A program made the translations under genes and the position numbers. 44,349 nt of DNA, taken from an uncultured Eubacteriales bacterium. GTDB taxonomy: Bacteria > Bacillota > Sulfobacillia > Fermentithermobacillales > Fermentithermobacillaceae. Shown in pieces: positions 6,793-40,115 of this stretch (position 1 is the stretch's first letter; every line of letters begins with the position of its first letter). The stretch lies in NCBI GenBank assembly GCA_964565305.1, contig CAZMEF010000001.1, positions 363 through 44,711 of the forward strand, written 5' to 3'. The notes under the pieces are model-generated. The model was given only the letters and a program-made list of their open reading frames with translations. It did no database searches and was not told the origin of the DNA.

Positions 6793-10775
<3,983 letters not shown>

Positions 10776-10909
10776 GGAAACACCGCCGCGGTAAGTTTGT
10801 AGATGACCCGATTATACCCGAAGCGCGCCCTCTCGTGCAGGAGTCCTGCTTTCAACGTAGAAATACTGTAGATTGAGTATTCTCTTCCGAAAAGAGGAAA
10901 GGGGACCGC

Positions 10910-12625
10910 ATGAGACCAGACGCGCCGGCAGTCGTCCAAAGCGACGGCACCATACTTTTGGAAGTCGGCAATCCCGACTACGAAAGCGCCCGGGATAGCC
11001 TAATGCGTTTCTCCGATCTTGTGAAAAGCCCCGAGTACATCCACACCTACAGGCTGTCTTCTTTGTCGCTGTGGAACGCCGCGTCTTGCGGAATGACGCC
11101 TCCGGAAGTCATACGATTGTTATCGGGGGTTTCGCGCTACGATCTCCCGCAAACCATTGAAGCGCTGATACGCGACACCATGGGAAAGTACGGCATCCTT
11201 TCTCTCCATCAAGAAGGGGAGGACCTGGTCCTCCGGTCCCGCGATCCGTTCGTGATGGAAGAAGTGAGGAGGTCCGACAAGACGGCGCCGCTCATCGAGC
11301 AAATCCGCGCCGACGGTTCGTTCATCGTGCGGCCCGAAGCCAGGGGGTCCATGAAGCAGGCCCTCATCAAGATGGGATATCCTTGCGAGGACCTGGCAGG
11401 TTACAAAGCGGGCGATCCGCTGGCCGTGTCATTCTCCAAAAAGAAAGAGGGGAACGGCGCGTGGTCTCTGAGACCGTACCAGAAAGCGGCATGTGACGCC
11501 TTTTGGGCCGGGGGCTCCGTCCGCGGCGGCAGCGGAGTCGTAGTGTTGCCCTGCGGGGCGGGAAAGACGATCGTAGGCATGGGCGTGATGGAAAAAGTCG
11601 GCATGCAGACCCTCATCCTGACGACCAACGTCGTGGCCTTGAGGCAATGGATCTCCGAACTGCTCGAAAAGACAGATCTTTCGCCCGACCAGGTGAAAGA
11701 GTATAGCGGCGAATGCAAAGAAATAGGTCCCGTGACGGTGTCGACGTACCAGATTCTGACGTACCGGAAAAAGGGCCGGGAACCGGAATACCCCCATTTC
11801 GAGCTTTTCGACAGGCGAAACTGGGGACTCATCATCTACGATGAAGTGCACCTTTTGCCGGCACCCGTGTTCAGAATAACGGCGGACCTACAAGCCCGCA
11901 GAAGGTTGGGCCTCACAGCGACTTTAGTTCGCGAAGACGGACGTGAGGATGAGGTCTTCAGCCTGATCGGACCCAAGAAATTCGACAAACCGTGGAAAGA
12001 GCTGGAGGAACAAAACTGGATAGCCCAGGCAAGCTGCCACGAAATACGGGTGGACCTCTCGCCTGAAGACAGATTGGAATACGCCGTGGCAGAAGAGCGG
12101 GACAAGTACCGCATAGCGGCCACAAACGAGCGGAAACTGCCTATCATAAAGAACATCTTAGACCATCACAAAGACGATCAAGTTCTGGTCATCGGCCAGT
12201 ACCTGTCCCAGTTGGAACTCATCGCCAAAGCGCTGGGAACTCCTCTTCTTTGCGGCCAAACTCCCAACTCCGAGAGAGAAGAGCTGTATTCGGGCTTCAG
12301 GGAAGGTCGGATCAAGACGCTTGTGGTTTCCAAGGTCGCCAATTTCTCCGTGGATCTGCCCGATGCCAACGTGGCCGTCCAAGTTTCGGGCACCTTTGGG
12401 TCTCGTCAGGAAGAAGCGCAGCGTCTTGGAAGGATTTTGCGGCCCAAGCCCCAAGGCGACGGAGCGACTTTCTACTCTCTTGTGACAAGGAACACCAAAG
12501 ATCAGGATTTCTCCCAAAAAAGACAACTGTTCCTCACCGAGCAGGGTTACCGATACACCATATGGGAAGGGCAAAATTACTTGAACGCGTTGTCCGAAGG
12601 AGGCGTCGCCGGTGAACCTGTATGA
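10910..12625 (+). CDS. XPB/Ssl2 (ERCC3/Rad25)-type SF2 DNA helicase/translocase
   Basis: 571 aa. XPB-type N-terminal domain of about 150 aa, Walker A LPCGAGKT, motif II YDEVHLLP, the XPB-specific RED motif in GLTATLVREDGRE, and motif VI QEEAQRLGRILR. Confidence 0.85.
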   Translation: MRPDAPAVVQSDGTILLEVGNPDYESARDSLMRFSDLVKSPEYIHTYRLSSLSLWNAASCGMTPPEVIRLLSGVSRYDLPQTIEALIRDTMGKYGILSLHQEGEDLVLRSRDPFVMEEVRRSDKTAPLIEQIRADGSFIVRPEARGSMKQALIKMGYPCEDLAGYKAGDPLAVSFSKKKEGNGAWSLRPYQKAACDAFWAGGSVRGGSGVVVLPCGAGKTIVGMGVMEKVGMQTLILTTNVVALRQWISELLEKTDLSPDQVKEYSGECKEIGPVTVSTYQILTYRKKGREPEYPHFELFDRRNWGLIIYDEVHLLPAPVFRITADLQARRRLGLTATLVREDGREDEVFSLIGPKKFDKPWKELEEQNWIAQASCHEIRVDLSPEDRLEYAVAEERDKYRIAATNERKLPIIKNILDHHKDDQVLVIGQYLSQLELIAKALGTPLLCGQTPNSEREELYSGFREGRIKTLVVSKVANFSVDLPDANVAVQVSGTFGSRQEEAQRLGRILRPKPQGDGATFYSLVTRNTKDQDFSQKRQLFLTEQGYRYTIWEGQNYLNALSEGGVAGEPV

Positions 12626-14177
12626 GGCATTTTCCTCCACTTCGGCCGAACGCCTGAAGAGCATAGCCGCCTTCTACGGTTTGCAAACGACTTGCGATCT
12701 CGCCGCTAAGGTAGCCTCGCATCTGGTCGTTCCCGCAAACGTCTTGGTGGCCATGAACGGGCTCAACAGCGAAGAGATCTTGGCGCTCCGCCTCATCACC
12801 ATCGCTGCCGGGGGACAAGGAGTAGTAGTGGAACAATGCCACCAGAAGCTGAACCAACTTTCTAGAAAATGGCGCAGGAACGGTGCAAAGGTTATCGAGG
12901 CGCTCATTTCTAGAGGGCTGGTGTTCACACGCCGGGAGGGGTACAGGCACATCTACTTTGTGGCCTCCGACCTTCGGGGTTTCTTGGCCGATTACTTCCT
13001 GTCCGAGATCTATAGATCCGCCGTCGTGGACAGCGCCCGGTTCGCGCCGAGGCGACGACATGACGGAGCGATGCCGCTACGCCATATGTGCCTTTTCCTG
13101 TCGTACCTTCGCAAGAACGAGGTCAAGCTCACTCAATCGGGCAACATGTTCAAGAAATCTCAGACGGAGATATCCGCCTTGATCGAGGAAGAGGCGGCGC
13201 CGCTTGACGAAGCGCTGTTCCCCGTGAGGTATCCCCCTAGGCTCGCGTTCCTTCTCTACTTCGGGAAATCCAAAAGCCTCGTTGAAGAGCGAGGGGGAGC
13301 ACTGGTCCTCGGTCAGAAAGCCTATCCTTGGATAGAGGCCCCCTATGAATCTTGGCGCCAGGACCTTTTCGACTACTGGCGGCAAACCTTCATCGCCCAG
13401 GACAGTGATCTCCAGACCCTCCTTTGGATTGTGATGATGGCCCCGAAGGACAATATCCTTTCGTTGGAATCGCTGCTGGCCGAGATGGACACCTTGTCCA
13501 CCAGCCACTCGTCCCATGGGCTGAACCTTCGGGTAGAACGCAGTCTCGTTGATTTCCTGGAGTATCTGGGCGGACTCGAAGTGGCCTCCTCGATAAACGG
13601 CCTTTTCATAAGGCCGACCGATATGGGAAGGGTTATGTTCAATCCGGGGGCCTCCTGGCCGGATGAAACCTTTGACGAAAGCGTCTACGTCCAGGCCAAT
13701 TTTGAGGTGCTCGTGCCGTGCTCTGTGGGACCGCGCGTCATTTGGGCGATCGACGCGTTCGCGGAACTGCTCAAGTCAGATCAGATGATGGTCTTTAAGC
13801 TTACACGAAATTCTGTCTACAGGGCCTTGGTGTTATCCTACACCCCCGAAACCATAAAGGCGTTCCTTGAGTCCCACTGTAAGAGCCCCGTGCCCCAAAA
13901 CGTCTCCTATTCCATATCCCATTGGGGGACATCCTACGGACGGTTGGAGTTCGAAGAGGCTATCCTTCTGAAATGCGACACGGCGGAATTGGCGGACGAG
14001 CTTCTGCTCTCTCCCAGGATCCGGCCTCACTTGCAGGGAAAAGTCGGACCCCGGCACCTCGTCGTGAATAGGACGTCATACGACCAATTGATCGCGGCTC
14101 TGGCCGATGAGGGATACATGCCGAAAGTTGATGGCAGCTCGCGTGTCCGTCGAGAGATCGCCGGACAACCCGACTAG
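12612..14177 (+). CDS. XPB-associated protein whose C-terminal domain resembles p52/Tfb2 and the XPB N-terminal domain
   Basis: 521 aa. The GTG start lies 14 nt inside the XPB 3' end, with GGAGG about 9 nt upstream. The C-terminal 150 aa (VQANFEVLV...FKLTRNSVYRAL..SYTPETIKAFLESH....VPQNVSYSISHW) aligns by eye with the XPB N-terminal domain and with the eukaryotic p52/Tfb2 pattern. No NTPase or nuclease motifs were seen. Confidence 0.6.
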   Translation: MNLYEAFSSTSAERLKSIAAFYGLQTTCDLAAKVASHLVVPANVLVAMNGLNSEEILALRLITIAAGGQGVVVEQCHQKLNQLSRKWRRNGAKVIEALISRGLVFTRREGYRHIYFVASDLRGFLADYFLSEIYRSAVVDSARFAPRRRHDGAMPLRHMCLFLSYLRKNEVKLTQSGNMFKKSQTEISALIEEEAAPLDEALFPVRYPPRLAFLLYFGKSKSLVEERGGALVLGQKAYPWIEAPYESWRQDLFDYWRQTFIAQDSDLQTLLWIVMMAPKDNILSLESLLAEMDTLSTSHSSHGLNLRVERSLVDFLEYLGGLEVASSINGLFIRPTDMGRVMFNPGASWPDETFDESVYVQANFEVLVPCSVGPRVIWAIDAFAELLKSDQMMVFKLTRNSVYRALVLSYTPETIKAFLESHCKSPVPQNVSYSISHWGTSYGRLEFEEAILLKCDTAELADELLLSPRIRPHLQGKVGPRHLVVNRTSYDQLIAALADEGYMPKVDGSSRVRREIAGQPD

Positions 14178-14186
14178 GGGCGCATA

Positions 14187-14618
14187 CTACAGGTCCCTGA
14201 CGGGACGGGCAAGCGGAAGGTAACGCCCCGCCTTGTTTGCGGCTTTGTCGTACCTGTTGAGCCAGAAGAACGATAAACCCAATCCGGCCAGTCCCGCGAC
14301 GGTCCCCCACAATGTGGGATTGCCAATCCCTCGCCCCAGAAGCCATCCGGCGCCGAAAGCCAAGAACGCGATTATGACAGGCATGAGGTAGACCAGGAAC
14401 GAAATTCGCAGGTAATCTTCGTTATCCATCTCGAGTTCAACAGTTTCCCCCGGTGAAACGTCCCCGAGAGGGACGGCTTCCACTATCAGATCATCGTTGT
14501 CCCCGAAAGCGATATGGGCATGAGAGCATTTTTGACAGTTGTCGCATGCCGCCGTCCGCTTCACGGAAACGGTGATCCTGCCATCGCCGACCGAGACCAC
14601 CCGACCCAATTCCCTCAC
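14187..14618 (-). CDS. RseC/MucC-family (SoxR-reducing system) membrane protein
   Basis: 143 aa. N-terminal beta domain with the Cys motif CDNCQKCSHAH, followed by two TM helices (ISFLVYLMPVIIAFLAF, WGTVAGLAGLGLSFFWL). GTG start with GGAGG 8 nt upstream, 16 nt after the rodA stop. Confidence 0.7.
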   Translation of the reverse strand: MRELGRVVSVGDGRITVSVKRTAACDNCQKCSHAHIAFGDNDDLIVEAVPLGDVSPGETVELEMDNEDYLRISFLVYLMPVIIAFLAFGAGWLLGRGIGNPTLWGTVAGLAGLGLSFFWLNRYDKAANKAGRYLPLARPVRDL

Positions 14619-14634
14619 TGTTCCGCCTCCGAAT

Positions 14635-15702
14635 CTAGAACAGAATCTTATGCCTGCTCCATCCTACATTGAGGACAAGGCCCAGGGCAAATGAGTCAAC
14701 CAGGAGCGCGGAGCCGCCGTAGCTCAAAAACGGAAGCGGCATCCCGGTGACAGGCATGATCCCCATGGTCATTCCCAAGTTCACGAACAAGTGAAAAGCG
14801 AACATAGTTAGTATCCCACCGGCCACAAGAGTCCCCTCCCTATCGGACGCGTTTGCGGCTATGACAAGGCATCTTAACAAAATAACAGCGTAGAGACCCA
14901 GCACCAAGAGGGTCTTGACGAATCCCAGTTCTTCTCCCACAACCGAGAAGATGAAATCGGTGTGTTGTTCCGGTATGAAATCCAGCTTGTTCTGAGTGCC
15001 TTTCCCGAGACCCTTGCCCCACGTTCCCCCCGAACCTATCGCGATCTTCGACTGCAAAACTTGATACCCCGTCCCAAGCGGGTCCTCGTGAGGATTAAAG
15101 AGTGACGTTAGGCGCTTGACCTGATAATCCTCTAGCGGCAAAGGCAACCCGGCGTAGCGGTTAAGCAGCAGCAACACCGCTATCGCCAGTACCGCCAGGA
15201 AGACCAACTTCATGACCGAAACGCCCGAAACGCCCCCGAAGTAGAGCATCCCAGTGCATATGGCGAGGAGCACCAAGGCGGTACCGAGGTCAGGCTGTTT
15301 CATGATCAAAAGAAGGGGCGGGACGAAGGTCACGTAGAAGAACGCGAGTTCCCATATCCTTTGCGGAACCTCATCGGATCTGGTAAGCAGCCAAGCGCCG
15401 AACAACACCGCCGAGACCTTCGCGACCTCTGACGGTTGTAGCGGAAAAAGGCCCAAGTCGATCCAGCGGGTCGCGCCCCCCACGGTAGTGCCAACAAACA
15501 ACACGAGTACCAAGAGACCGACCGTAACCCCGAAGATCCACGGCGAGATGCTCACCATGTCCCTGTAGTTTATGAAGGTTCCCAAGGCCAAAGCGACCAA
15601 TGACAGCCCCATAAGTACCAGCTGTTTCTTGACCCAATAATGACCGTCGGAGCCGTGTGTCGCGCTATCGATCAGCGGAAGAGAAAGGGCGTCCAACAAC
15701 AA
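14635..15702 (-). CDS. rodA: SEDS-family peptidoglycan glycosyltransferase RodA (start uncertain)
   Basis: Multi-TM protein with FtsW/RodA signatures (QPSE.AK, DFIFSVVGEELGF, PLPFLSYGGSALL). It sits downstream of mrdA/minCDE. The conserved N-terminal RRIDVYLVVAV continues upstream of the TTG at 15702 without an ATG/GTG/TTG codon. Confidence 0.85.
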   Translation of the reverse strand: MLLDALSLPLIDSATHGSDGHYWVKKQLVLMGLSLVALALGTFINYRDMVSISPWIFGVTVGLLVLVLFVGTTVGGATRWIDLGLFPLQPSEVAKVSAVLFGAWLLTRSDEVPQRIWELAFFYVTFVPPLLLIMKQPDLGTALVLLAICTGMLYFGGVSGVSVMKLVFLAVLAIAVLLLLNRYAGLPLPLEDYQVKRLTSLFNPHEDPLGTGYQVLQSKIAIGSGGTWGKGLGKGTQNKLDFIPEQHTDFIFSVVGEELGFVKTLLVLGLYAVILLRCLVIAANASDREGTLVAGGILTMFAFHLFVNLGMTMGIMPVTGMPLPFLSYGGSALLVDSFALGLVLNVGWSRHKILF

Positions 15703-32057: not shown

Positions 32058-32092
32058 TTGACGTGTAATAATCCTACGATAATAATAGGATT
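32058..32092 (+). promoter_or_regulatory. Candidate promoter plus inverted-repeat operator of the Rrf2-nifS-nifU operon
   Basis: TTGACG (32058-32063), a 16/17-nt spacer, then TAATAAT. The inverted repeat AATCCTA (32070-32076) / TAGGATT (32086-32092) straddles the -10. AGGAGG lies 8 nt before the ATG at 32118. Confidence 0.45.
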
Positions 32093-32117
32093 TAATGAAA
32101 CGCAGGAGGCTCAAAGA

Positions 32118-32522
32118 ATGCCGTTCAGGCTTTCGACCCGTGGCCATTACGCGGTGCTCATGATGTACGAGCTGGCTAGAGCAGGACGAGCCTACGTGTC
32201 GTTGACAGATATCGCGTCGGCCCAAAGGGTATCCCAGGGTTACCTCGAGCAGATCGTGAAGCCGCTCAGAGAAGCCGGCCTTGTGATAAGCAGAAGGGGC
32301 TTCGGCGGAGGGTACACCCTGGCCAGGCCGCCCGAGGAGGTAACAGTGGGCCAAGTGGTCAGGGCCGTTGAAGGGCCCGTCCTGCCGGTCAAATGCGCGG
32401 GGCTGGCCGCGGCGCCGGACGAATGCCCCGATGACTGCCAAGCGCGTTCTGTGTGGCAAAAGGTGGGGTTAGCCATCGATTCCGTACTGGATTCGGTGAC
32501 GCTTAGGAGTCTTCTGCAGTAG
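32118..32522 (+). CDS. iscR: Rrf2-family transcriptional regulator, IscR-like (three clustered Cys)
   Basis: Start reassigned to MPFRLSTRGHYAVLMMYELA (Rrf2 wHTH). The Cys cluster is VKCAGLAAAPDECPDDC. It sits upstream of nifS/nifU. Confidence 0.8.
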   Translation: MPFRLSTRGHYAVLMMYELARAGRAYVSLTDIASAQRVSQGYLEQIVKPLREAGLVISRRGFGGGYTLARPPEEVTVGQVVRAVEGPVLPVKCAGLAAAPDECPDDCQARSVWQKVGLAIDSVLDSVTLRSLLQ

Positions 32523-32551
32523 TGACGTCTAGGAGCTCGGGGGGTATTGGT

Positions 32552-33709
32552 ATGAGGCGTGTCTACCTGGATCACTCGGCGACGACCCCGGTAAGGGGCG
32601 AGGTCATGGCCGCGATGATGCCTTACTTCGCGAACACCTTCGGGAACGCTTCGAGCGTTCACCGGTGGGGCCGGGAGGCGAGGGCGGGCCTTGAAGAGGC
32701 AAGGACCAAGGTTGCGGAGCTGTTGGGCGCCGAACCTCAGGAGATTATTTTCACCTCAGGTGGCACCGAGTCGGATAACCTCGCCATAAGGGGCATGGCG
32801 TCGCGGCTGAGCGGAAAAGGCAATCACATCATAACCTCGGCCATCGAGCATCACGCCGTTCTCCATACCTGTGAAGATCTTGAAAAGAACGGGTACACCG
32901 TCACGTACCTTCCCGTCGACAAGTACGGGCTTATCGACCCTGAGGACGTAAAGCGAGCCATTACGGACAAGACCATACTGTTAACGCTCATCCACGGCCA
33001 CAACGAGGTGGGCACCATTCAACCTTTGGACGAGATCGGCGCCATCGCAAAGGAAAAGGGCGTCATATTTCACGTCGATGCCGTCCAAAGCGCCGGGAAA
33101 GTGCCCCTCGATGTCAAGAAGACGGCCGTTGACCTCATAAGTCTTTCAAGCCACAAGATGTACGGACCAAAGGGGATCGGGGCGCTTTACGTCAGAAGGG
33201 GCGTCAGGCCCACGCCTTTGGCTACAGGCGGCGGCCACGAACGCGGCCTTAGGGCGGGAACCGAAAACGTAGTCGGAGCGGTGGGGTTTGGAGAGGCTTG
33301 TCGCCTGGCAAAGGAGGAACTGCCGACTGAACCCGCAAGGCTCACGGCTCTTCGCGATCACCTTATCACGGGAATTTTGGAAGGGATCCCGGACACGGTC
33401 CTGAACGGACACCCCACGAAGCGACTTCCGAACCACGTCAATGTCAGCGTCAAGTACATCGAGGGCGAAGCCATGCTCTTGAATCTGGACCTTGTTGGCA
33501 TCGGCGCGTCCTCGGGCTCCGCTTGCACGTCAGGCTCTTTAGAGCCATCTCACGTCCTGTTGGCCATGGGGCTAACGCATGAGCTGGCACACGGTTCTTT
33601 GCGGCTGACTCTTGGCAGAGATACGACAAGAGAAGACCTGGATTACGTGATCGCCTCTTTGGCCCCGATAGTGGCCAAATTGAGAAGCATGTCGGTATTC
33701 GGTCGATAG
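32552..33709 (+). CDS. nifS: Cysteine desulfurase (NifS/IscS class I)
   Basis: Starts MRRVYLDHSATTP. PLP-lysine motif SLSSHKMYGPKG and active-site loop SSGSACTSG. Confidence 0.9.
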   Translation: MRRVYLDHSATTPVRGEVMAAMMPYFANTFGNASSVHRWGREARAGLEEARTKVAELLGAEPQEIIFTSGGTESDNLAIRGMASRLSGKGNHIITSAIEHHAVLHTCEDLEKNGYTVTYLPVDKYGLIDPEDVKRAITDKTILLTLIHGHNEVGTIQPLDEIGAIAKEKGVIFHVDAVQSAGKVPLDVKKTAVDLISLSSHKMYGPKGIGALYVRRGVRPTPLATGGGHERGLRAGTENVVGAVGFGEACRLAKEELPTEPARLTALRDHLITGILEGIPDTVLNGHPTKRLPNHVNVSVKYIEGEAMLLNLDLVGIGASSGSACTSGSLEPSHVLLAMGLTHELAHGSLRLTLGRDTTREDLDYVIASLAPIVAKLRSMSVFGR

Positions 33710-33724
33710 TGGAGGCGCTACAAA

Positions 33725-34108
33725 ATGTACAACGACAAAGTCATGGATCACTTCACAAACCCTCGCAATGTTGGCGAGATAGAGAACGCCGACGGCGTCG
33801 GCCAGGTTGGTAACCCCGTTTGCGGGGACGTGATGCGTATTACCCTTAAGATAAAAGATGACCGGATAGAGGATATTAAGTTTCGCACTTTCGGTTGCGG
33901 CGCGGCGATCGCCACCAGTTCGATGGTTACCGAGCTTGTCAAAGGACTGACGCTCGACGAGGCCATGAGCGTCTCCAATAAGGCGGTGGCCGATGCCTTG
34001 GGCGGGTTGCCCACGCCCAAACTCCATTGCTCGAACTTGGCCGCCGACGCCTTGCACAAAGCTATCGAGGATTATCGTCAAAGAAACGGCCAAGCCATAA
34101 CAGCCTAA
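33725..34108 (+). CDS. nifU: Fe-S cluster assembly scaffold (IscU/NifU N-terminal type)
   Basis: 127 aa with the three scaffold Cys contexts: GNPVCGD, FGCGAAIASS-like (FGCGAAIATSS) and LHCSNLA. Confidence 0.9.
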   Translation: MYNDKVMDHFTNPRNVGEIENADGVGQVGNPVCGDVMRITLKIKDDRIEDIKFRTFGCGAAIATSSMVTELVKGLTLDEAMSVSNKAVADALGGLPTPKLHCSNLAADALHKAIEDYRQRNGQAITA

Positions 34109-34272
34109 GAGCCCCTCAACGTCCACATCCCCGGGGCGGGATCCGATAATGTGATCGTTGTCGAAGGCGCTCGAATCCGCTGATACATGCGGAACAGCGT
34201 TCGAGGCGGAAGCGTCTTACCACACGAAAGATTTACTTTTTCGCGCGAAACAATCGACCGGGGTGATTCCAT

Positions 34273-36459
34273 TTGAGAAACTCTGCCCAAAGAAAGAGCG
34301 TCAAAAAACCGGACCGCGCATTACTCATCTTGTTGTCTTGTGCCTTGTTCGTATCGCTCCTATCTCCCGTTTCGTACGCGGCGCCCGGAGGGCCGGTGCC
34401 GCCCACGCTTGAGGGATTTGAGGCCGTGGTGGTAGGAGACGTCTGCAATGTCAGGACCGGCCCGGACACAAAATACGATTGGAAAGGCGAGGCCCGGCGA
34501 GGAGAACGCGTCCTTGTGCAAGGTTACGATAACGGATGGTATCTGGTGAAGACCAAATCGTGTGAGGGTTACATAGCAGGATGGTTGGTAGATGTTGACC
34601 TGTCGTCTCGAGGAGTCTCCGCCCGGATAACGAAAAGCGATGTCAACGTTCGCGAAGGGCCCGATCTGTCTTTCGAAGTCAAGTTCATGGTCGGTCCCGG
34701 CACGGTCCTGCCTGCCGAAGCGCGTAGAGGAGACTGGATCCGCGTGACGCTCGGCGACGGAGCTGATGGATGGATAAGAGAGGACCTGCTGGTTCTCGAG
34801 TACAGAGTCATCGAGTCGGAACCCGCCACCGGTCTGATGGTGTTCCCTGCCGGACAAAGCCTAAGCGTCACCCACAGCGCGATGGTCAGTTCGGAAGTTT
34901 TGGCGACCTTGAGTCGGGGCGAATCGGCACGACTTGTGGGTTGTAGGGGAGCTTACATAGCGGTCGTAACGTCCAAGGGCGTAGGGGGATGGGTCTACGG
35001 GCCGCAGGCCACGGTCATCTCCTCAAACGACGGGGCTCTCTCATTCGGAGTATCGGCATCGTCGTGGAGTCTTGGGAGATATTCGACCTTCAAAGTGAAC
35101 GCCACGGATGTCAATTTCCGGTCCGGCCCCGGGACAAGCTATCCCGCAATCGGGATGCTGCAAAAGGGCGATACGCTACGGTTGATTGAGACTCAAGGGG
35201 ACTGGATCAGGGCCGTCTCGCCGAAAGGCGTGACCGGTTGGGTCGCTTCTTGGCTGACGACAGGCGCTTCCGACGCCAAGGGCTTCACGGTCACCGCCGA
35301 CGCCTCTGGTAAAGCCAGGACAGTTACCGTCACAGGCGATTTCCAGAGCGCCGTTATCCTGCCGGGCCCGGACGGCACCTCAGTTACCATAAGCACATCG
35401 GTTCTTCTTGGCACTGACGTGCTGTTGCCGGTCAACGCGTTTGAGTTCGAAAGTTTGAGGGTCTCGGGCAGTGACGTAACGGTGAATCTCCTGGGGAGGT
35501 CGTCTTACTCGGTCAAAACCAACGTCCGGGGAAAAGTCGTCGTCGAATTCGCTCCCGAGATCACGGGGATCACCATGACTCCGAAACAGGACGGGGACTA
35601 CCTCACGGTTGATACTCTTGGCTTCGCTTGGCCGGATGTTACCCGGAATGGCAATAACATTGACCTTTTTGTGGCAGGAGCCTCCTTTACGGGCAGCGCC
35701 ACAAACCAACCGGGCGGCTCGGCCAGATTGGCCGCGGTGGGGGCCAAGGATGGAGGCACCAATGTGTCCGTCACCGCCCCGACAAATACCGCGTACGTCT
35801 TGACGCGAGATTCCAACGCGTTGACGGCCAAGTTTCAAAAACCGGGTTTGGCGGGAAAGACCATCGTAGTGGACCCGGGTCACGAGGCGGACGATCCCGG
35901 GGCGGTGGGACCGACGGGCCTGGCTGAAAGGAACGTCAACTGGGAGATAGCATTGCGCTTGGCAGAACTCCTGAGACAACAAGGAGCCAACGTCATAGTC
36001 ACCAGAAACGGCACTTTCGAGTCGTCGCCCGCGCCGGAAGACTGGGTTCCCGGTTTGGACGAGTACTCGGGATCTTTGGCCCGGAGGGTCGCCTGGTCGA
36101 AAGGGGCCGATCTTTTCGTGTCGATCCACAACGACTCGGCTTACGATCGCTCCGCCGGAGGAACCGCGTCGTATGTCTGCGACAGAACGCTCAATTGCGC
36201 GGAATCGAGAAGGCTTGCGAACTTGATCCAGTCTAGTCTCTGTCCCATACTGGGCACCAAAAACAGGGGCATCAACGACTCCAATCTGTTCGTAGTGAGA
36301 GAATCGTCTTGCCCGGCCGTGCTCGTCGAAGTTATGTTCATATCGAATTACACCGAAGAATCGTATCTGCGGAAGGCCAACACCTGGGAACTGGCGGCGT
36401 CAGGGATATGCAACGCCATCGAAAGCTTCTTCTCGCCCGCCGGGTCCGCCGGGATCTAG
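34273..36459 (+). CDS. Secreted SH3b-repeat N-acetylmuramoyl-L-alanine amidase (Amidase_3)
   Basis: 728 aa. Signal peptide ending VSYAAP, four SH3b-like repeats (NVR.GP......G....G....GW..V....GW), a central beta-rich region of about 190 aa, and a C-terminal Amidase_3 domain (IVVDPGHEADDPGAVGP..L.ERNVNWEIA, SIHNDS). TTG start is presumed. Confidence 0.8.
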   Translation: MRNSAQRKSVKKPDRALLILLSCALFVSLLSPVSYAAPGGPVPPTLEGFEAVVVGDVCNVRTGPDTKYDWKGEARRGERVLVQGYDNGWYLVKTKSCEGYIAGWLVDVDLSSRGVSARITKSDVNVREGPDLSFEVKFMVGPGTVLPAEARRGDWIRVTLGDGADGWIREDLLVLEYRVIESEPATGLMVFPAGQSLSVTHSAMVSSEVLATLSRGESARLVGCRGAYIAVVTSKGVGGWVYGPQATVISSNDGALSFGVSASSWSLGRYSTFKVNATDVNFRSGPGTSYPAIGMLQKGDTLRLIETQGDWIRAVSPKGVTGWVASWLTTGASDAKGFTVTADASGKARTVTVTGDFQSAVILPGPDGTSVTISTSVLLGTDVLLPVNAFEFESLRVSGSDVTVNLLGRSSYSVKTNVRGKVVVEFAPEITGITMTPKQDGDYLTVDTLGFAWPDVTRNGNNIDLFVAGASFTGSATNQPGGSARLAAVGAKDGGTNVSVTAPTNTAYVLTRDSNALTAKFQKPGLAGKTIVVDPGHEADDPGAVGPTGLAERNVNWEIALRLAELLRQQGANVIVTRNGTFESSPAPEDWVPGLDEYSGSLARRVAWSKGADLFVSIHNDSAYDRSAGGTASYVCDRTLNCAESRRLANLIQSSLCPILGTKNRGINDSNLFVVRESSCPAVLVEVMFISNYTEESYLRKANTWELAASGICNAIESFFSPAGSAGI

Positions 36460-37341: not shown

Positions 37342-38688
37342 CTAAAACGACGTGGCGCCTGTGAAGTTGAACTCCTTGATCTTGACGATGGGCAGGACGG
37401 GTTCAAAAGTGCTCCACCAGTCCCTTGTGATCCTGGATGTCTTGGATAAGGACTCAACGCGCCCGAAAGCGTCAACCATAGATTCGGTGAACCGCAGGTT
37501 CTTGACCCTGGCCACGATACGGCCATCTTCGATCAAGAAAGTTCCGTCCCTGGTCGTTCCCGTTGCAACAACCCGTGAGGGTTCGGGACAGTGCGTGTAG
37601 TGGAATCTCGTCACGATCAAGCCCCGCTTCGTCGAGCCGATCATCTCTTCCAGGGTCGAGTCACCTGTGTCCATGAACATGTTCGTGGGCATAGGCCCGG
37701 GATTCCAGGCGGAATCGCCGCCTTTGTGCCCTGTGGTCCGCACCCCGTCCCGGGTGGCGGTCCTGAAATCGTAGACGACCGCGTTGGCGACGCCCTTGTC
37801 GATAATGACGACTTTTCGTTTCGGCATCCCTTCCGGATCGAAAGGAATCGCCATTCCCCTTGTGTCCAGACCGTCGTCCCATATGGTGACGTTATCCCCA
37901 AGGACCTTTTGGCCCATCTTGTCGGACATGAAGCTTCGCCCCTGCTGCTTGGCCTCAGCGTCGAAAGAATAGATCCCGAAGAAACGGATCAAATCGGCCA
38001 CAGCGTACTCCATGAAAATAGTATCGTACCGGCCGGGAGGCAGATCGCGCGCGTCAGGATATAACGTTGCGCGTTCAAGCGCCTCCTCCGCGCAAGCGGC
38101 GACGTCTATCTCCCGAACGTCTCTCTTGAGTCTATCGCCGTAACCCGTGTTGGGGCCGGATCCCACGATGCACCGGAAAAACGCCTCGGTGGACGAGTTG
38201 TAGGCTCGTACGCCGGTGCTGCTGGCCACCGCCTTCTCTCGAACTCCCGTTGAGAAAGTTCCCGCTGCCGTGAGCCCCTTCGCCCTGGCAACCGAAATGG
38301 CGACCCCACACGCGTCCGCCCGCTCGCGGGGCTTAAACGAGGCTGTGCCGGGAACGTATGTCTGAACGGAGCCCGACGCCTCAGGTTTGGGCAGCCCGGG
38401 AAACGACTCATCTTCGCCGGAGGCCTCCATGTTTTCCAGTGCCGACTGAACGGCCCACCGAAGCGACCCGTCATCCAGGAGGTTAACTTGCGACTTTCCG
38501 GAGCGTTTCTTCTTGATGACCCGGACGGTCAGGAGGTGATCTTGACGGCGCAAGTTTTGGTGGATGTGGTTGTCGTAAAATCGGGTGAGCGCTATGTCTT
38601 CAGTTTCCAACAACGCTTCGATCTCGAAACCGGAGGCGTAGGATATGACCTTGTCCAAAATCTTTCGGGCATCGTCTTTTCCGATCAT
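37342..38688 (-). CDS. pmbA: TldE/PmbA-family metalloprotease subunit
   Basis: Start reassigned to the ATG at 38688 (ATGA overlap with the tldD stop), giving MIGKDDARKILDKVISYA and 448 aa. TldD/PmbA fold without the HExxxH motif. The track ORF's 84-aa N-extension lies inside tldD. Confidence 0.85.
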   Translation of the reverse strand: MIGKDDARKILDKVISYASGFEIEALLETEDIALTRFYDNHIHQNLRRQDHLLTVRVIKKKRSGKSQVNLLDDGSLRWAVQSALENMEASGEDESFPGLPKPEASGSVQTYVPGTASFKPRERADACGVAISVARAKGLTAAGTFSTGVREKAVASSTGVRAYNSSTEAFFRCIVGSGPNTGYGDRLKRDVREIDVAACAEEALERATLYPDARDLPPGRYDTIFMEYAVADLIRFFGIYSFDAEAKQQGRSFMSDKMGQKVLGDNVTIWDDGLDTRGMAIPFDPEGMPKRKVVIIDKGVANAVVYDFRTATRDGVRTTGHKGGDSAWNPGPMPTNMFMDTGDSTLEEMIGSTKRGLIVTRFHYTHCPEPSRVVATGTTRDGTFLIEDGRIVARVKNLRFTESMVDAFGRVESLSKTSRITRDWWSTFEPVLPIVKIKEFNFTGATSF

Positions 38689-40115
38689 TGACCGACACCC
38701 ACTTTCACTTTGCGAAACCTCGCCGGCGAAGCGCCGTGTCCAACGTGCGCCACCTGTACGGGTTCGCCCTTCGCGCAGTTGGGCATGCCATAAATATGCC
38801 ATTCGTCCTTCTTGGCAACGGCGTCGCACGAATTCCAGAATTCGGGCGTTATGCCCGTATGCGCCGGGTTCTTGAGCATCCTTCCGAGGCAGCCGTCCTT
38901 GATCTCGTAGGCTACCTCCTGGCCAAAGTGGAAGTTCCACCGTTTGTCGTCCAAGCTCCAGCTCTTGGGGGTCTCCACATACACGCCTTTAGACGTGTCC
39001 TTGATTATCTCGTCCAGACTCCAATCGCCTGGCTCGAGGTTAATATTGGTCATCCTGACGAGAGGGATGTTCTGCCACCCCACGGCCCGCATGGTGCCGT
39101 TCGATTCTTGCTCGAACTTGGACGCAAGCTCGCGGGACGTCAGATAGTCGACGAACATCCCGTCGACAACAAGATCCGTCCTCTGCGCCTCTACCCCTTC
39201 GTCGTCAAAGGCAAAACTCCCAAGCCCTCCGGGCGCCGTGGCGTCCGCCACCATATGCACTTCCTCTGAGCCGTAACGGAAACTGCCCTTCTTGTCGGGC
39301 GTGAGGAAAGAAGTCCCGGCGAACGTGGCCTCCTGACCCAATACCCGGTCCAATTCCACGGGATGGCCGCACGATTCGTGGATCTGTAAGGCTACCATTT
39401 CCGCGCCCATCACGAGATCTGTGACCCCGCCCGGACACGGCGGTGCATCCAGCAAAGCCACCGCTTCGCGTCCAAGCCGTTCGGCCCGGCCCGGCAGGTC
39501 CAAGTCCCGGATGAACTCGTAACCCGCGCCTGCGTAGTCCGCAAAAGACCGGCTTTGGACCTCGTTCTCTGCCCTTGCGGCGACAGAGATCGAGGCCCCC
39601 GAATGTATTAACGTCTGCTCGATCTGGCGCCCGTCGGTCGACATGAACTGCTTTTCCTCTTTGTAGGTCAGCATCGAAGCGGTAGCCCTAGACACACCGG
39701 GTATTCTCTTCGCCGCGTCGAGGGCGTCTTGCAAAGTGGCGACCTTATCCTCTGTCTTGACGGATAGAGGGTCGATTCTGTGGGGCGTCTGGTATCGCGC
39801 CCGTATGGGGGCCATCGGAGACAGGGTGACCCCGTCTCCGATCTTATGTCTCGCGGATGCGGCCGCGATCCTGACCGCCTCGTCCGCGGTCTTTTCGATG
39901 CTGCGTGGATCAAGGTACGGGGTGGCGGCGAAACCCCATCCCCCATCCATGAGAACGCGCAAGCCCAGCCCCACGCTCCTTCGGGATGACGTGTCGGCCG
40001 CGCCGTCCGTAGACAGGCTCACAGGAGCCTCAGTAGTCGCAACGTAGCGAGCGTCGGCGTACTCCGCGCCCATCTTTTGAGCAAGACCCAAGACTCGCTC
40101 CAATTCGCTAAGCAC
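38685..40115 (-). CDS. tldD: TldD-family metalloprotease
   Basis: 476 aa. Contains the metal-binding HESCGHPVE (HExxxH) and the conserved C-terminal GxC motif region. Confidence 0.9.
   Translation of the reverse strand: MLSELERVLGLAQKMGAEYADARYVATTEAPVSLSTDGAADTSSRRSVGLGLRVLMDGGWGFAATPYLDPRSIEKTADEAVRIAAASARHKIGDGVTLSPMAPIRARYQTPHRIDPLSVKTEDKVATLQDALDAAKRIPGVSRATASMLTYKEEKQFMSTDGRQIEQTLIHSGASISVAARAENEVQSRSFADYAGAGYEFIRDLDLPGRAERLGREAVALLDAPPCPGGVTDLVMGAEMVALQIHESCGHPVELDRVLGQEATFAGTSFLTPDKKGSFRYGSEEVHMVADATAPGGLGSFAFDDEGVEAQRTDLVVDGMFVDYLTSRELASKFEQESNGTMRAVGWQNIPLVRMTNINLEPGDWSLDEIIKDTSKGVYVETPKSWSLDDKRWNFHFGQEVAYEIKDGCLGRMLKNPAHTGITPEFWNSCDAVAKKDEWHIYGMPNCAKGEPVQVAHVGHGASPARFRKVKVGVGQ

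Follow-up and report, generated by a model that had tools for sequence, protein, structure and literature searches.

The DNA analysed here, a window of 44,349 nucleotides (nt) from an uncultured Eubacteriales bacterium of the family Fermentithermobacillaceae (assembly GCA_964565305.1, contig CAZMEF010000001.1), carries two overlapping genes on its plus strand. The first encodes an XPB helicase and the second a protein, here called the partner, that resembles p52/Tfb2, a subunit of eukaryotic TFIIH. Both open reading frames (ORFs) lie where an earlier note on this DNA, written from the sequence alone, had placed them, and the 14-nt overlap between them, with a GGAGG set 8 nt before the GTG of the partner, can be read directly from the sequence (Table 1). 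The N termini of 24 homologues align at that GTG. We propose, with a probability of about 0.7, that this operon makes a two-subunit DNA translocase composed of XPB and a bacterial homologue of p52/Tfb2.

Table 1. Features of the XPB-partner locus and its divergent neighbours, in window coordinates (aa, amino acids)
Feature	Position	Strand	Details
XPB gene	10910-12625	+	571 aa; ORF translation
p52/Tfb2-like partner gene	12612-14177	+	521 aa; GTG start at 12612
GGAGG ribosome-binding site of partner	12599-12603	+	Within XPB 3' end; 8-nt spacer to GTG 12612
Overlap of partner GTG and XPB TGA (translational-coupling junction)	12612-12625	+	14 nt; TGA at 12623-12625
XPB N-terminal domain, residues 8-128	10931-11293	+	Pfam PF13625, E 6.8e-32; p52-pairing domain in TFIIH
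XPB residues 30-159, paralogous to partner 379-504	10997-11386	+	hhalign
XPB helicase core, residues 186-552	11465-12565	+	ResIII 186-340, ERCC3_RAD25_C 365-552; Walker A, DEVH, RED, QxxGRxxR
Partner N-terminal half, residues 1-345	12612-13646	+	Helical N terminus and three winged-helix-like units (model)
Partner basic motif EQCHQKLNQLSRKWRRN, residues 74-90	12831-12881	+	Helices 2-3 of first winged helix; 25-homologue alignment
Partner clutch/HubA (MD2)-type domain, residues 358-473	13683-14030	+	PF13625, weak Tfb2, NCBIfam XPB, PDB profile search
Partner C-terminal beta-beta-alpha element, residues 474-505, ending GYMPK	14031-14126	+	Secondary structure from model
Promoter-like motif AGGAGTCCTGCTTTCAACGTAGAAA (AGGA-N15-18-RGAAW)	10839-10863	+	47-71 nt upstream of XPB start
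pcrA	8817-10775	-	Divergent from XPB
ligA	6793-8814	-	Adjoins pcrA

The predicted product of the first gene is a complete XPB/Ssl2-type superfamily 2 (SF2) DNA helicase/translocase of unambiguous identity, as the earlier note had recognized. Curated models score above their cutoffs (NCBIfam NF045503 repair_heli_XPB, 842.9 bits against 610, over residues 6-551; TIGR00603 rad25, 337 bits against 328.7), Pfam finds Helicase_C_3 at the N terminus followed by ResIII and ERCC3_RAD25_C, and the translation contains VVLPCGAGKT (Walker A), DEVH, TATLVREDG (RED) and QRLGRILR (QxxGRxxR), four motifs that are invariant across 14 XPBs. A sequence search of the PDB aligned the protein with human XPB over residues 6-551 (E 2e-79), whereas the solved archaeal XPBs aligned only partially (E ~1e-46 to 1e-36); this XPB is thus nearer to the human protein, over its full length, than to the solved archaeal ones. 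The XPB of A. fulgidus appears to lack the N-terminal domain common to bacterial and eukaryotic XPB (Balasingham 2012). In TFIIH, XPB pairs with p52 through this domain (Greber et al. 2019, PMC6422496). No bacterial XPB structure was present in the PDB copy searched.

The partner is an unambiguous member of the PF13625 (Helicase_C_3; InterPro 'Helicase XPB/Ssl2 N-terminal domain') 'helicase-associated' family (80.6 bits, E 1.3e-22, residues 358-473), a family name that covers only a shared domain of ~120 residues and not a p52-like architecture or a link to XPB. Its relatives are named 'helicase-associated domain-containing protein' or 'Helicase XPB/Ssl2 N-terminal domain-containing protein' in PGAP and UniProt. 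Authentic vertebrate p52 proteins carry Pfam Tfb2, Tfb2_C and Helicase_C_3, and because real p52 carries the last of these, PF13625 can be taken as a fold that the p52 clutch has in common with the N-terminal domain of XPB (Greber 2019). The motifs that first drew attention to p52, VQANFEVLV at partner residues 360-368 and KLTRNSV...ISHW at residues 396-438, are present within this domain and stand far above chance. Three further comparisons bear on the same region: Pfam Tfb2 (PF03849) matches residues 358-423 weakly, at profile positions 291-356 of 358 (E 0.011); the NCBIfam XPB model matches the clutch (E 4e-10); and a PDB search with a profile of 25 partner homologues returned 13 matches, all of them XPB (E from 7e-5) or p52/Tfb2 (E from 1.4e-3), with the p52 match spanning 160 residues. 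The likeness of the C-terminal third to p52/Tfb2, on which the earlier note had based its case, is therefore borne out.

The likeness also appears to extend past that third, to p52 residues 176-453 in profile comparison and to the full length in predicted fold. For the former we used hhalign and a p52 set of 13 vertebrate sequences, found with a human p52 probe sequence (top match 99% identical to the probe). The profile of 25 partner homologues aligned partner residues 294-453 with p52 245-410 (hhalign probability 91%, E 1.1e-6), and a profile of 78 members from several bacterial phyla aligned partner 214-494 with p52 176-453 over 260 collinear columns (96.3%, E 2e-9). Because this p52 range takes in part of MD1 and the p8-dimerisation domain, in addition to HubA/clutch (HubA 306-400), it covers regions of p52 that XPB does not share. 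Judged by these profiles, the partner is homologous to p52 in sequence over more than half of its length, at an identity of about 13-20%. The profile similarity to p52/Tfb2 or to the XPB N-terminal domain that the earlier note had proposed as a check is present. For partner residues 1-213, no sequence signal to p52 was found.

Predicted structure covers the whole protein. When an AlphaFold2 model of the full partner (predicted local distance difference test (pLDDT) 87.4, predicted TM-score (pTM) 0.77) was compared with the PDB by Foldseek, the top 21 matches were all p52/Tfb2 (E 2e-14 to 2e-6, ~500-534 columns), and XPB chains ranked after them, through the XPB N-terminal domain. A second model, of residues 1-345 without the clutch (pLDDT 90, pTM 0.87), likewise had p52/Tfb2 as all of its top 13 matches (E 3e-6 to 2.5e-3, TM ~0.3), including 6tru_D, a crystallised N-terminal half of p52; the tandem winged-helix proteins STK19, RPC62, PaaX and ScpB appeared as weak, later matches. 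The modelled partner appears to show the domain order of p52, namely a winged-helix array (units at about residues 53-116, 154-233 and 245-335), a clutch/HubA domain and a small C-terminal alpha/beta domain. The last is a beta-alpha-beta-beta-alpha unit formed by a strand (451-454), a helix (458-466) and the element at 474-505, and it aligns with the p8-dimerisation domain of p52. The earlier note had seen neither a nuclease domain nor a DNA-binding motif in the partner; the first statement holds in Pfam and PADLOC, and the second does not, the N-terminal two thirds being predicted to form a winged-helix-like array.

A comparison of the two families with each other matched XPB residues 30-159 to partner residues 379-504 (hhalign, 99%, E 9.4e-18, 126 columns), which implies that both proteins carry one two-part module. 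The match passes the end of the Pfam domain and runs on into the beta-beta-alpha element, where XPB reads GYPC and the partner GYMP, and the unit of the partner that aligns with the p8-dimerisation domain is paralogous to XPB residues 110-159. By this comparison, the C-terminal 125 residues of the partner are a paralogue of the XPB N terminus. The counterparts in TFIIH (XPB NTE and DRD, p52 MD2 and p8) form a ring that cradles the RecA lobes.

Whether the search starts from the partner or from XPB, the two genes prove to be linked, and this holds across several bacterial phyla. In a partner-based scan using one genome per species, which gave 42 loci from Fermentithermobacillaceae and other Bacillota with partners 35-74% identical, XPB lies directly upstream of the partner on the same strand in 39. 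Translational coupling, which had been suggested for the window pair from its overlap and GGAGG, extends to these relatives: 32 of the 39 adjacent pairs overlap (28 by 4 nt of the ATGA type, 3 by 1 nt and 1 by 14 nt), and the other 7 are separated by gaps of 1-34 nt. The reverse survey started from 80 metagenomic XPB loci, whose ORFs were searched with a hidden Markov model (HMM) of the partner at a threshold of at least 60 bits. A partner-like ORF was found in the flank of 45, which corresponds to 45 of the 52 testable loci, a locus being counted as testable if it has a partner or if none appears although each flank measures 2.5 kb or more; a further 16 of the 80 had no partner and one usable flank only, and 12 were too short to test. 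The partner is directly upstream of XPB in 17 of these 45 loci, directly downstream in 20 (with a second paralogue following in 9 of the 20), and elsewhere in the flank, nearby on the same strand or on the opposite strand, in 8. The conserved adjacency that the earlier note had proposed as a check thus holds from either gene. Translational coupling and near-obligate adjacency suggest a stoichiometric complex of XPB and partner.

Adjacency is also seen further afield. More distant partners of 650-830 aa adjoin XPB in a Planctomycetes metagenome-assembled genome (MAG), an Anaerolineae MAG and another metagenomic contig, and in the cultured Paenibacillus cellulosilyticus RefSeq annotates a 'DNA repair helicase XPB' and a 'helicase-associated domain-containing protein' (the pair WP_174812423.1 / WP_110042899.1) whose genes overlap by 14 nt. 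In Nocardia the XPB and partner genes are ~4.6 kb apart on opposite strands. Clustered at 50% identity, the partner family has 6182 representatives at E <=1e-3, a set that may include XPBs matched by their own N-terminal domain, and 469 at E <=1e-30.

Several points weigh against reading the partner as a p52 homologue that works with XPB. First, its Pfam Tfb2 match scores 15.1 bits, under the gathering cutoff of 34.5, and TIGR00625 gives 15 bits against a cutoff of 320.7; in favour of p52 homology, Pfam Tfb2 matches do occur in 18 of 78 relatives (best E 1.4e-8, 28 bits), but no relative among those with scores inspected reached the cutoff. The partner is accordingly not filed as a member of Pfam Tfb2. 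Of the Pfam families named in the earlier note, Helicase_C_3 was matched, Tfb2 fell below its cutoff and Tfb2_C (PF18307) gave no match in the window partner; Pfam Tfb5 matches one relative (E 0.006). Second, the residue corresponding to the essential E310 of p52 (E342 of Tfb2) is Q361, although glutamate is found there in some relatives. Third, the p52 profile comprises vertebrates only, the partner is nearer in sequence to the XPB N-terminal domain than to p52, and a profile of partner residues 236-398 (the last winged helix and the first half of the clutch) gave chance matches only against PDB sequences (E ~0.3), none of them p52. We ascribe this last result to the sensitivity of an HMM-versus-sequence search, which is too low in that region, where profile-profile comparison is needed. 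Fourth, the Foldseek TM-scores are ~0.3 with root-mean-square deviations of 15-19 A, so that the N-terminal likeness lies in domain order and local fold, within a protein that has several domains and is flexible, and does not amount to a rigid superposition. Fifth, no p8/Tfb5 gene was found at the locus, there being only 9 nt between the partner stop and the rseC-like gene and no small ORF in the intergenic region upstream of XPB. Finally, linkage is incomplete: of the 42 partner loci, 3 do not have XPB next to the partner (in one it lies 3 kb further downstream past unrelated genes, and in two none occurs within the flank), and 7 of the 52 testable XPB loci show no partner even though each flank measures 2.5 kb or more.

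Many of these points would also fit a different origin, in which the partner is not a p52 homologue at all and instead represents a duplicated XPB N-terminal module fused to generic winged helices, its resemblance to p52 being convergent and binding to XPB still possible. The strongest sequence signal is indeed to the XPB N terminus (hhalign E 9e-18; NCBIfam XPB E 4e-10), and the missed Pfam Tfb2 threshold, the negative 236-398 sub-profile, the low TM-scores and the weak fold matches to STK19, RPC62, PaaX and ScpB all go the same way. We nevertheless consider such convergence unlikely. The collinear 260-column alignment takes in ~130 p52 residues before the clutch and ~50 after it, regions that XPB does not possess in that form; the N-terminal half alone ranks 13 p52/Tfb2 chains above any other fold; and total size and domain order agree with p52. 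Our claim for the partner is remote homology to p52 together with a common architecture and a mode of action that is probably shared as well.

If the operon does make an XPB-p52 translocase, TFIIH suggests how it could work (Greber 2019, Kappenberger 2020, Coin 2007). By analogy, the clutch beta-sheet of the partner would pack on the homologous N-terminal domain of XPB to give a pseudo-symmetric heterodimer, and the C-terminal domain of the partner would sit against XPB RecA2. The RecA lobes would thereby be held in an ATPase-competent geometry, and translocation of XPB on double-stranded DNA would be activated or tuned. Anchoring to DNA, or to a further factor, would probably fall to the winged-helix half, which carries the invariant EQCHQKLN...RKWRRN motif.

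On this reading, the locus is a minimal bacterial version of the TFIIH XPB-p52 sub-module, encoded as an operon. It shares with the XPB-p52-p8 'bottom lobe' the XPB N-terminal domain, RED motif and helicase core. The partner also appears to follow p52 in layout, with winged helices towards the N terminus, then a clutch/HubA domain that is homologous to the N-terminal domain of XPB, and a small alpha/beta domain at the C terminus. The bacterial form differs in comprising only two genes, which overlap in an operon, without p8/Tfb5, p34, p44, p62 or XPD at the locus; in an XPB that lacks the eukaryotic C-terminal extension; in an N-terminal winged helix that carries an invariant basic motif where that of p52 binds p34; and, in some lineages, in tandem partner paralogues or a WYL fusion. 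The earlier description of the pair as TFIIH-core-like can thus be kept for the XPB-p52 sub-module only: no p34, p44, p62 or XPD gene lies in the operon, nor does p8, and the label does not reach the wider core. The archaeal XPB-Bax1 system is similar in being a prokaryotic two-gene XPB module with the partner encoded beside XPB. However, Bax1 is a nuclease unrelated to p52, whereas the bacterial partner has no nuclease domain. A Bax1-like or nuclease partner was considered and rejected: none is present among the Pfam-scanned large ORFs of the window, in which XPB is surrounded by pcrA, the p52-like gene and an rseC-like gene, and the earlier remark that Bax1 is missing holds within that scope.

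The first winged helix of the partner contains a conserved basic motif, EQCHQKLNQLSRKWRRN, in which E74, C76, H77, L80, N81, W87, R88, R89 and N90 are invariant in 25 homologues (32-76% identity) and which is not found in that form in distant relatives of 700-800 aa. It is a candidate DNA- or partner-binding surface and may be a subfamily-specific helix. C-terminal WYL domains occur in 12 of the 78 relatives, actinobacterial and some Chloroflexi (for example L049 4429-6864, L050 8001-10298, P0183 and P0220), and Pfam detects none in the window partner. WYL domains sense single-stranded DNA (ssDNA) in PafBC and DriD, and the fusions suggest that a ligand or ssDNA signal may feed the XPB module in those lineages. 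As a separate observation, partner residues 1-22 (12612-12680; MNLxEALxxxxxERLxxIAxFYG) look like a helix-extension-helix/SAP-type motif, and Pfam SAP has a weak match in one distant relative (E 7e-4).

Upstream of XPB lies the promoter-like motif AGGAGTCCTGCTTTCAACGTAGAAA, with the core ACGTAGAAT, which across related loci (L001-L040) is found 47-88 nt before the XPB start. The pattern AGGA-N15-18-RGAAW occurs in 23 of 38 related upstream regions at a similar position (-64 to -88), against an average of 0.45 in shuffled controls. We take this pattern to resemble the Bacillus sigma-H consensus; a sigma-H-like promoter, if that is what it is, would imply expression of XPB and partner during stationary phase or as sporulation begins. 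A scan of positions 10700-14700 for sigma-70-type promoters gave no match in the intergenic region upstream of XPB, and a terminator scan of the same positions gave terminator-like matches within coding sequence, at roughly the level expected by chance.

These features raise the question of whether the partner might be a DNA-damage-responsive transcription regulator, with an XPB-like domain that only tethers or senses XPB and does not activate its ATPase. A winged-helix array with an invariant basic helix, the WYL domains of 12 of 78 relatives, the conserved promoter-like motif and the name 'DNA-binding protein' that some sources give to partner relatives would all suit such a regulator. But genes that are translationally coupled and almost always adjacent suggest a stoichiometric complex, the nearest structural relatives of the array are p52 scaffold domains and not operator-binding repressors, and the window partner itself has no WYL domain. 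We therefore regard a mainly regulatory role as quite improbable.

The likely function of the pair is chromosomal DNA repair or the rescue of DNA problems that arise with transcription, rather than protection from foreign DNA. Its conserved place beside pcrA-ligA and the WYL domains of 12 of 78 relatives hint at such a role. An anti-phage or anti-plasmid module, consisting of a helicase with an accessory subunit, has some points in its favour: pairs of SF2 helicases and accessory proteins are common in defence systems, the XPB core has partial matches to PADLOC PbeA models, and one distant relative of the partner shows a weak match to Mrr_cat_2 (E 0.003). The PADLOC matches of XPB are partial PbeA matches only, however, and confined to the generic helicase C-terminal lobe, and the partner has none. 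No nuclease or other effector gene accompanies the pair, the same core-chromosome position is kept across the family, no match was found in 50,697 phage records, and a plasmid-type search gave three matches only, in large non-mobilizable replicons. With the PADLOC, phage and plasmid searches negative or uninformative and the locus in the core chromosome, we rejected an anti-foreign-DNA device as hardly credible.

Mycobacteria offer a hint as to what the pair might do. In M. tuberculosis transposon sequencing (Tn-seq) under rifampin, mutants of ercc3 (Rv0861c), which belongs to the same XPB family, are hypersusceptible (log fold change (LFC) -1.45, p 1.5e-11), as are mutants of the adjacent Rv0862c (LFC -1.68, p 8.5e-14), and neither gene scores under isoniazid (PMC10534295 supplement). 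Only ercc3 was followed up in the published paper (PMC10534295). Rv0862c encodes a neighbour protein of at least 749 aa to which the literature assigns no function; the order of the tags, both on the complement strand, implies partner then XPB, and the actinobacterial partner is longer than that of the window and has a WYL domain. Two considerations reduce the weight that this phenotype can bear. Membership of Rv0862c in the partner family, and hence orthology to the window partner, is inferred from its position, its Nocardia counterpart (a 765-aa Helicase_C_3 and WYL protein near XPB) and an M. avium annotation, and its rifampin phenotype may possibly reflect a polar effect on ercc3. A search with the Nocardia partner as query gave only Nocardia among the matches listed. 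Mycobacterial XPB is reported to be a weak enzyme when purified by itself (PMC3353954), which fits a missing activator.

A more far-reaching interpretation, which we offer tentatively and hold to be doubtful, is that the XPB-p52 heterodimer is ancient and widespread and that the XPB-p52-p8 lobe of TFIIH descends from the bacterial module and not from archaeal XPB-Bax1. In such a history, p8 and the C-terminal domain of p52 would have arisen later, as copies of the small domain that bacterial XPB and its partner already have in common. A complex acting on RNA-polymerase-linked DNA problems would explain the effect of both mycobacterial genes on rifampin tolerance.

Bacterial XPB has been known since the 1990s, and a 2026 review still calls its function elusive. 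The literature on the mycobacterial protein deals with XPB by itself and reports that bacteria have no known homologue of p52. Searches for an earlier account of a bacterial p52/Tfb2 homologue, or of partners with PF13625, gave none in the searchable full text, which does not extend to subscription journals, where an earlier comparative-genomics mention is possible. Our results suggest that an XPB-p52 two-protein motor is widespread in bacteria and may supply the missing activator of bacterial XPB. Treating the partner as a p52-type subunit makes a testable prediction, namely that co-expression should bring out ATPase or translocase activity. Such a two-protein bacterial complex would be a simple model of how p52 controls XPB, relevant to mutations in xeroderma pigmentosum and trichothiodystrophy and to the action of triptolide, and it bears on the origin of the TFIIH core. 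Our results further single out Rv0862c as a candidate for the partner of Ercc3 in the rifampin tolerance of M. tuberculosis.

The surroundings of the pair are those that the earlier note had described, with divergent pcrA-ligA, convergent morphogenesis genes and two plus-strand blocks only. Upstream of XPB the minus strand carries gatB, gatA, ligA and pcrA, with ligA-pcrA divergent from XPB. Downstream and convergent, also on the minus strand, are an RseC-like gene, separated from the partner stop by only 9 nt, followed by rodA, minE, minD, minC, PBP2 and mreB. The same chromosomal slot, between pcrA-ligA and rseC-rodA-minD, is occupied across the whole family, and the divergent pcrA-ligA synteny is kept even where partners are 35-38% identical (L033, L037-L042). 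This arrangement hints at co-regulation or a functional link of XPB and partner with PcrA.

Gene order varies among metagenomic loci. Partner-then-XPB order is found in 17 (L077, L093-L095, L103, L105-L107, L110, L111, L116, L118-L120, L122, L127 and L129). Tandem partner paralogues, in the order XPB-P1-P2, occur in Chloroflexi-type and several metagenomic loci (L043 1398-8250 and L047 2688-8340, and further L053, L076, L078, L080, L088, L091, L096 and L117); in L043 XPB is followed by an inserted SfsA gene (nuclease fold). By analogy with p52 and p8, such tandem paralogues could heterodimerise through their C-terminal domains.

Beyond mreB the window contains rnfC, sigma-54 and TldD/PmbA, and the sole plus-strand block besides XPB-partner, at 32058-36459, holds Rrf2, cysteine desulfurase and amidase genes. 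Two adjacent minus-strand ORFs of the TldD/PmbA family, at 37342-38940 and 38685-40115, overlap by ~250 nt as listed, and the downstream gene has probably been assigned a start too far upstream.

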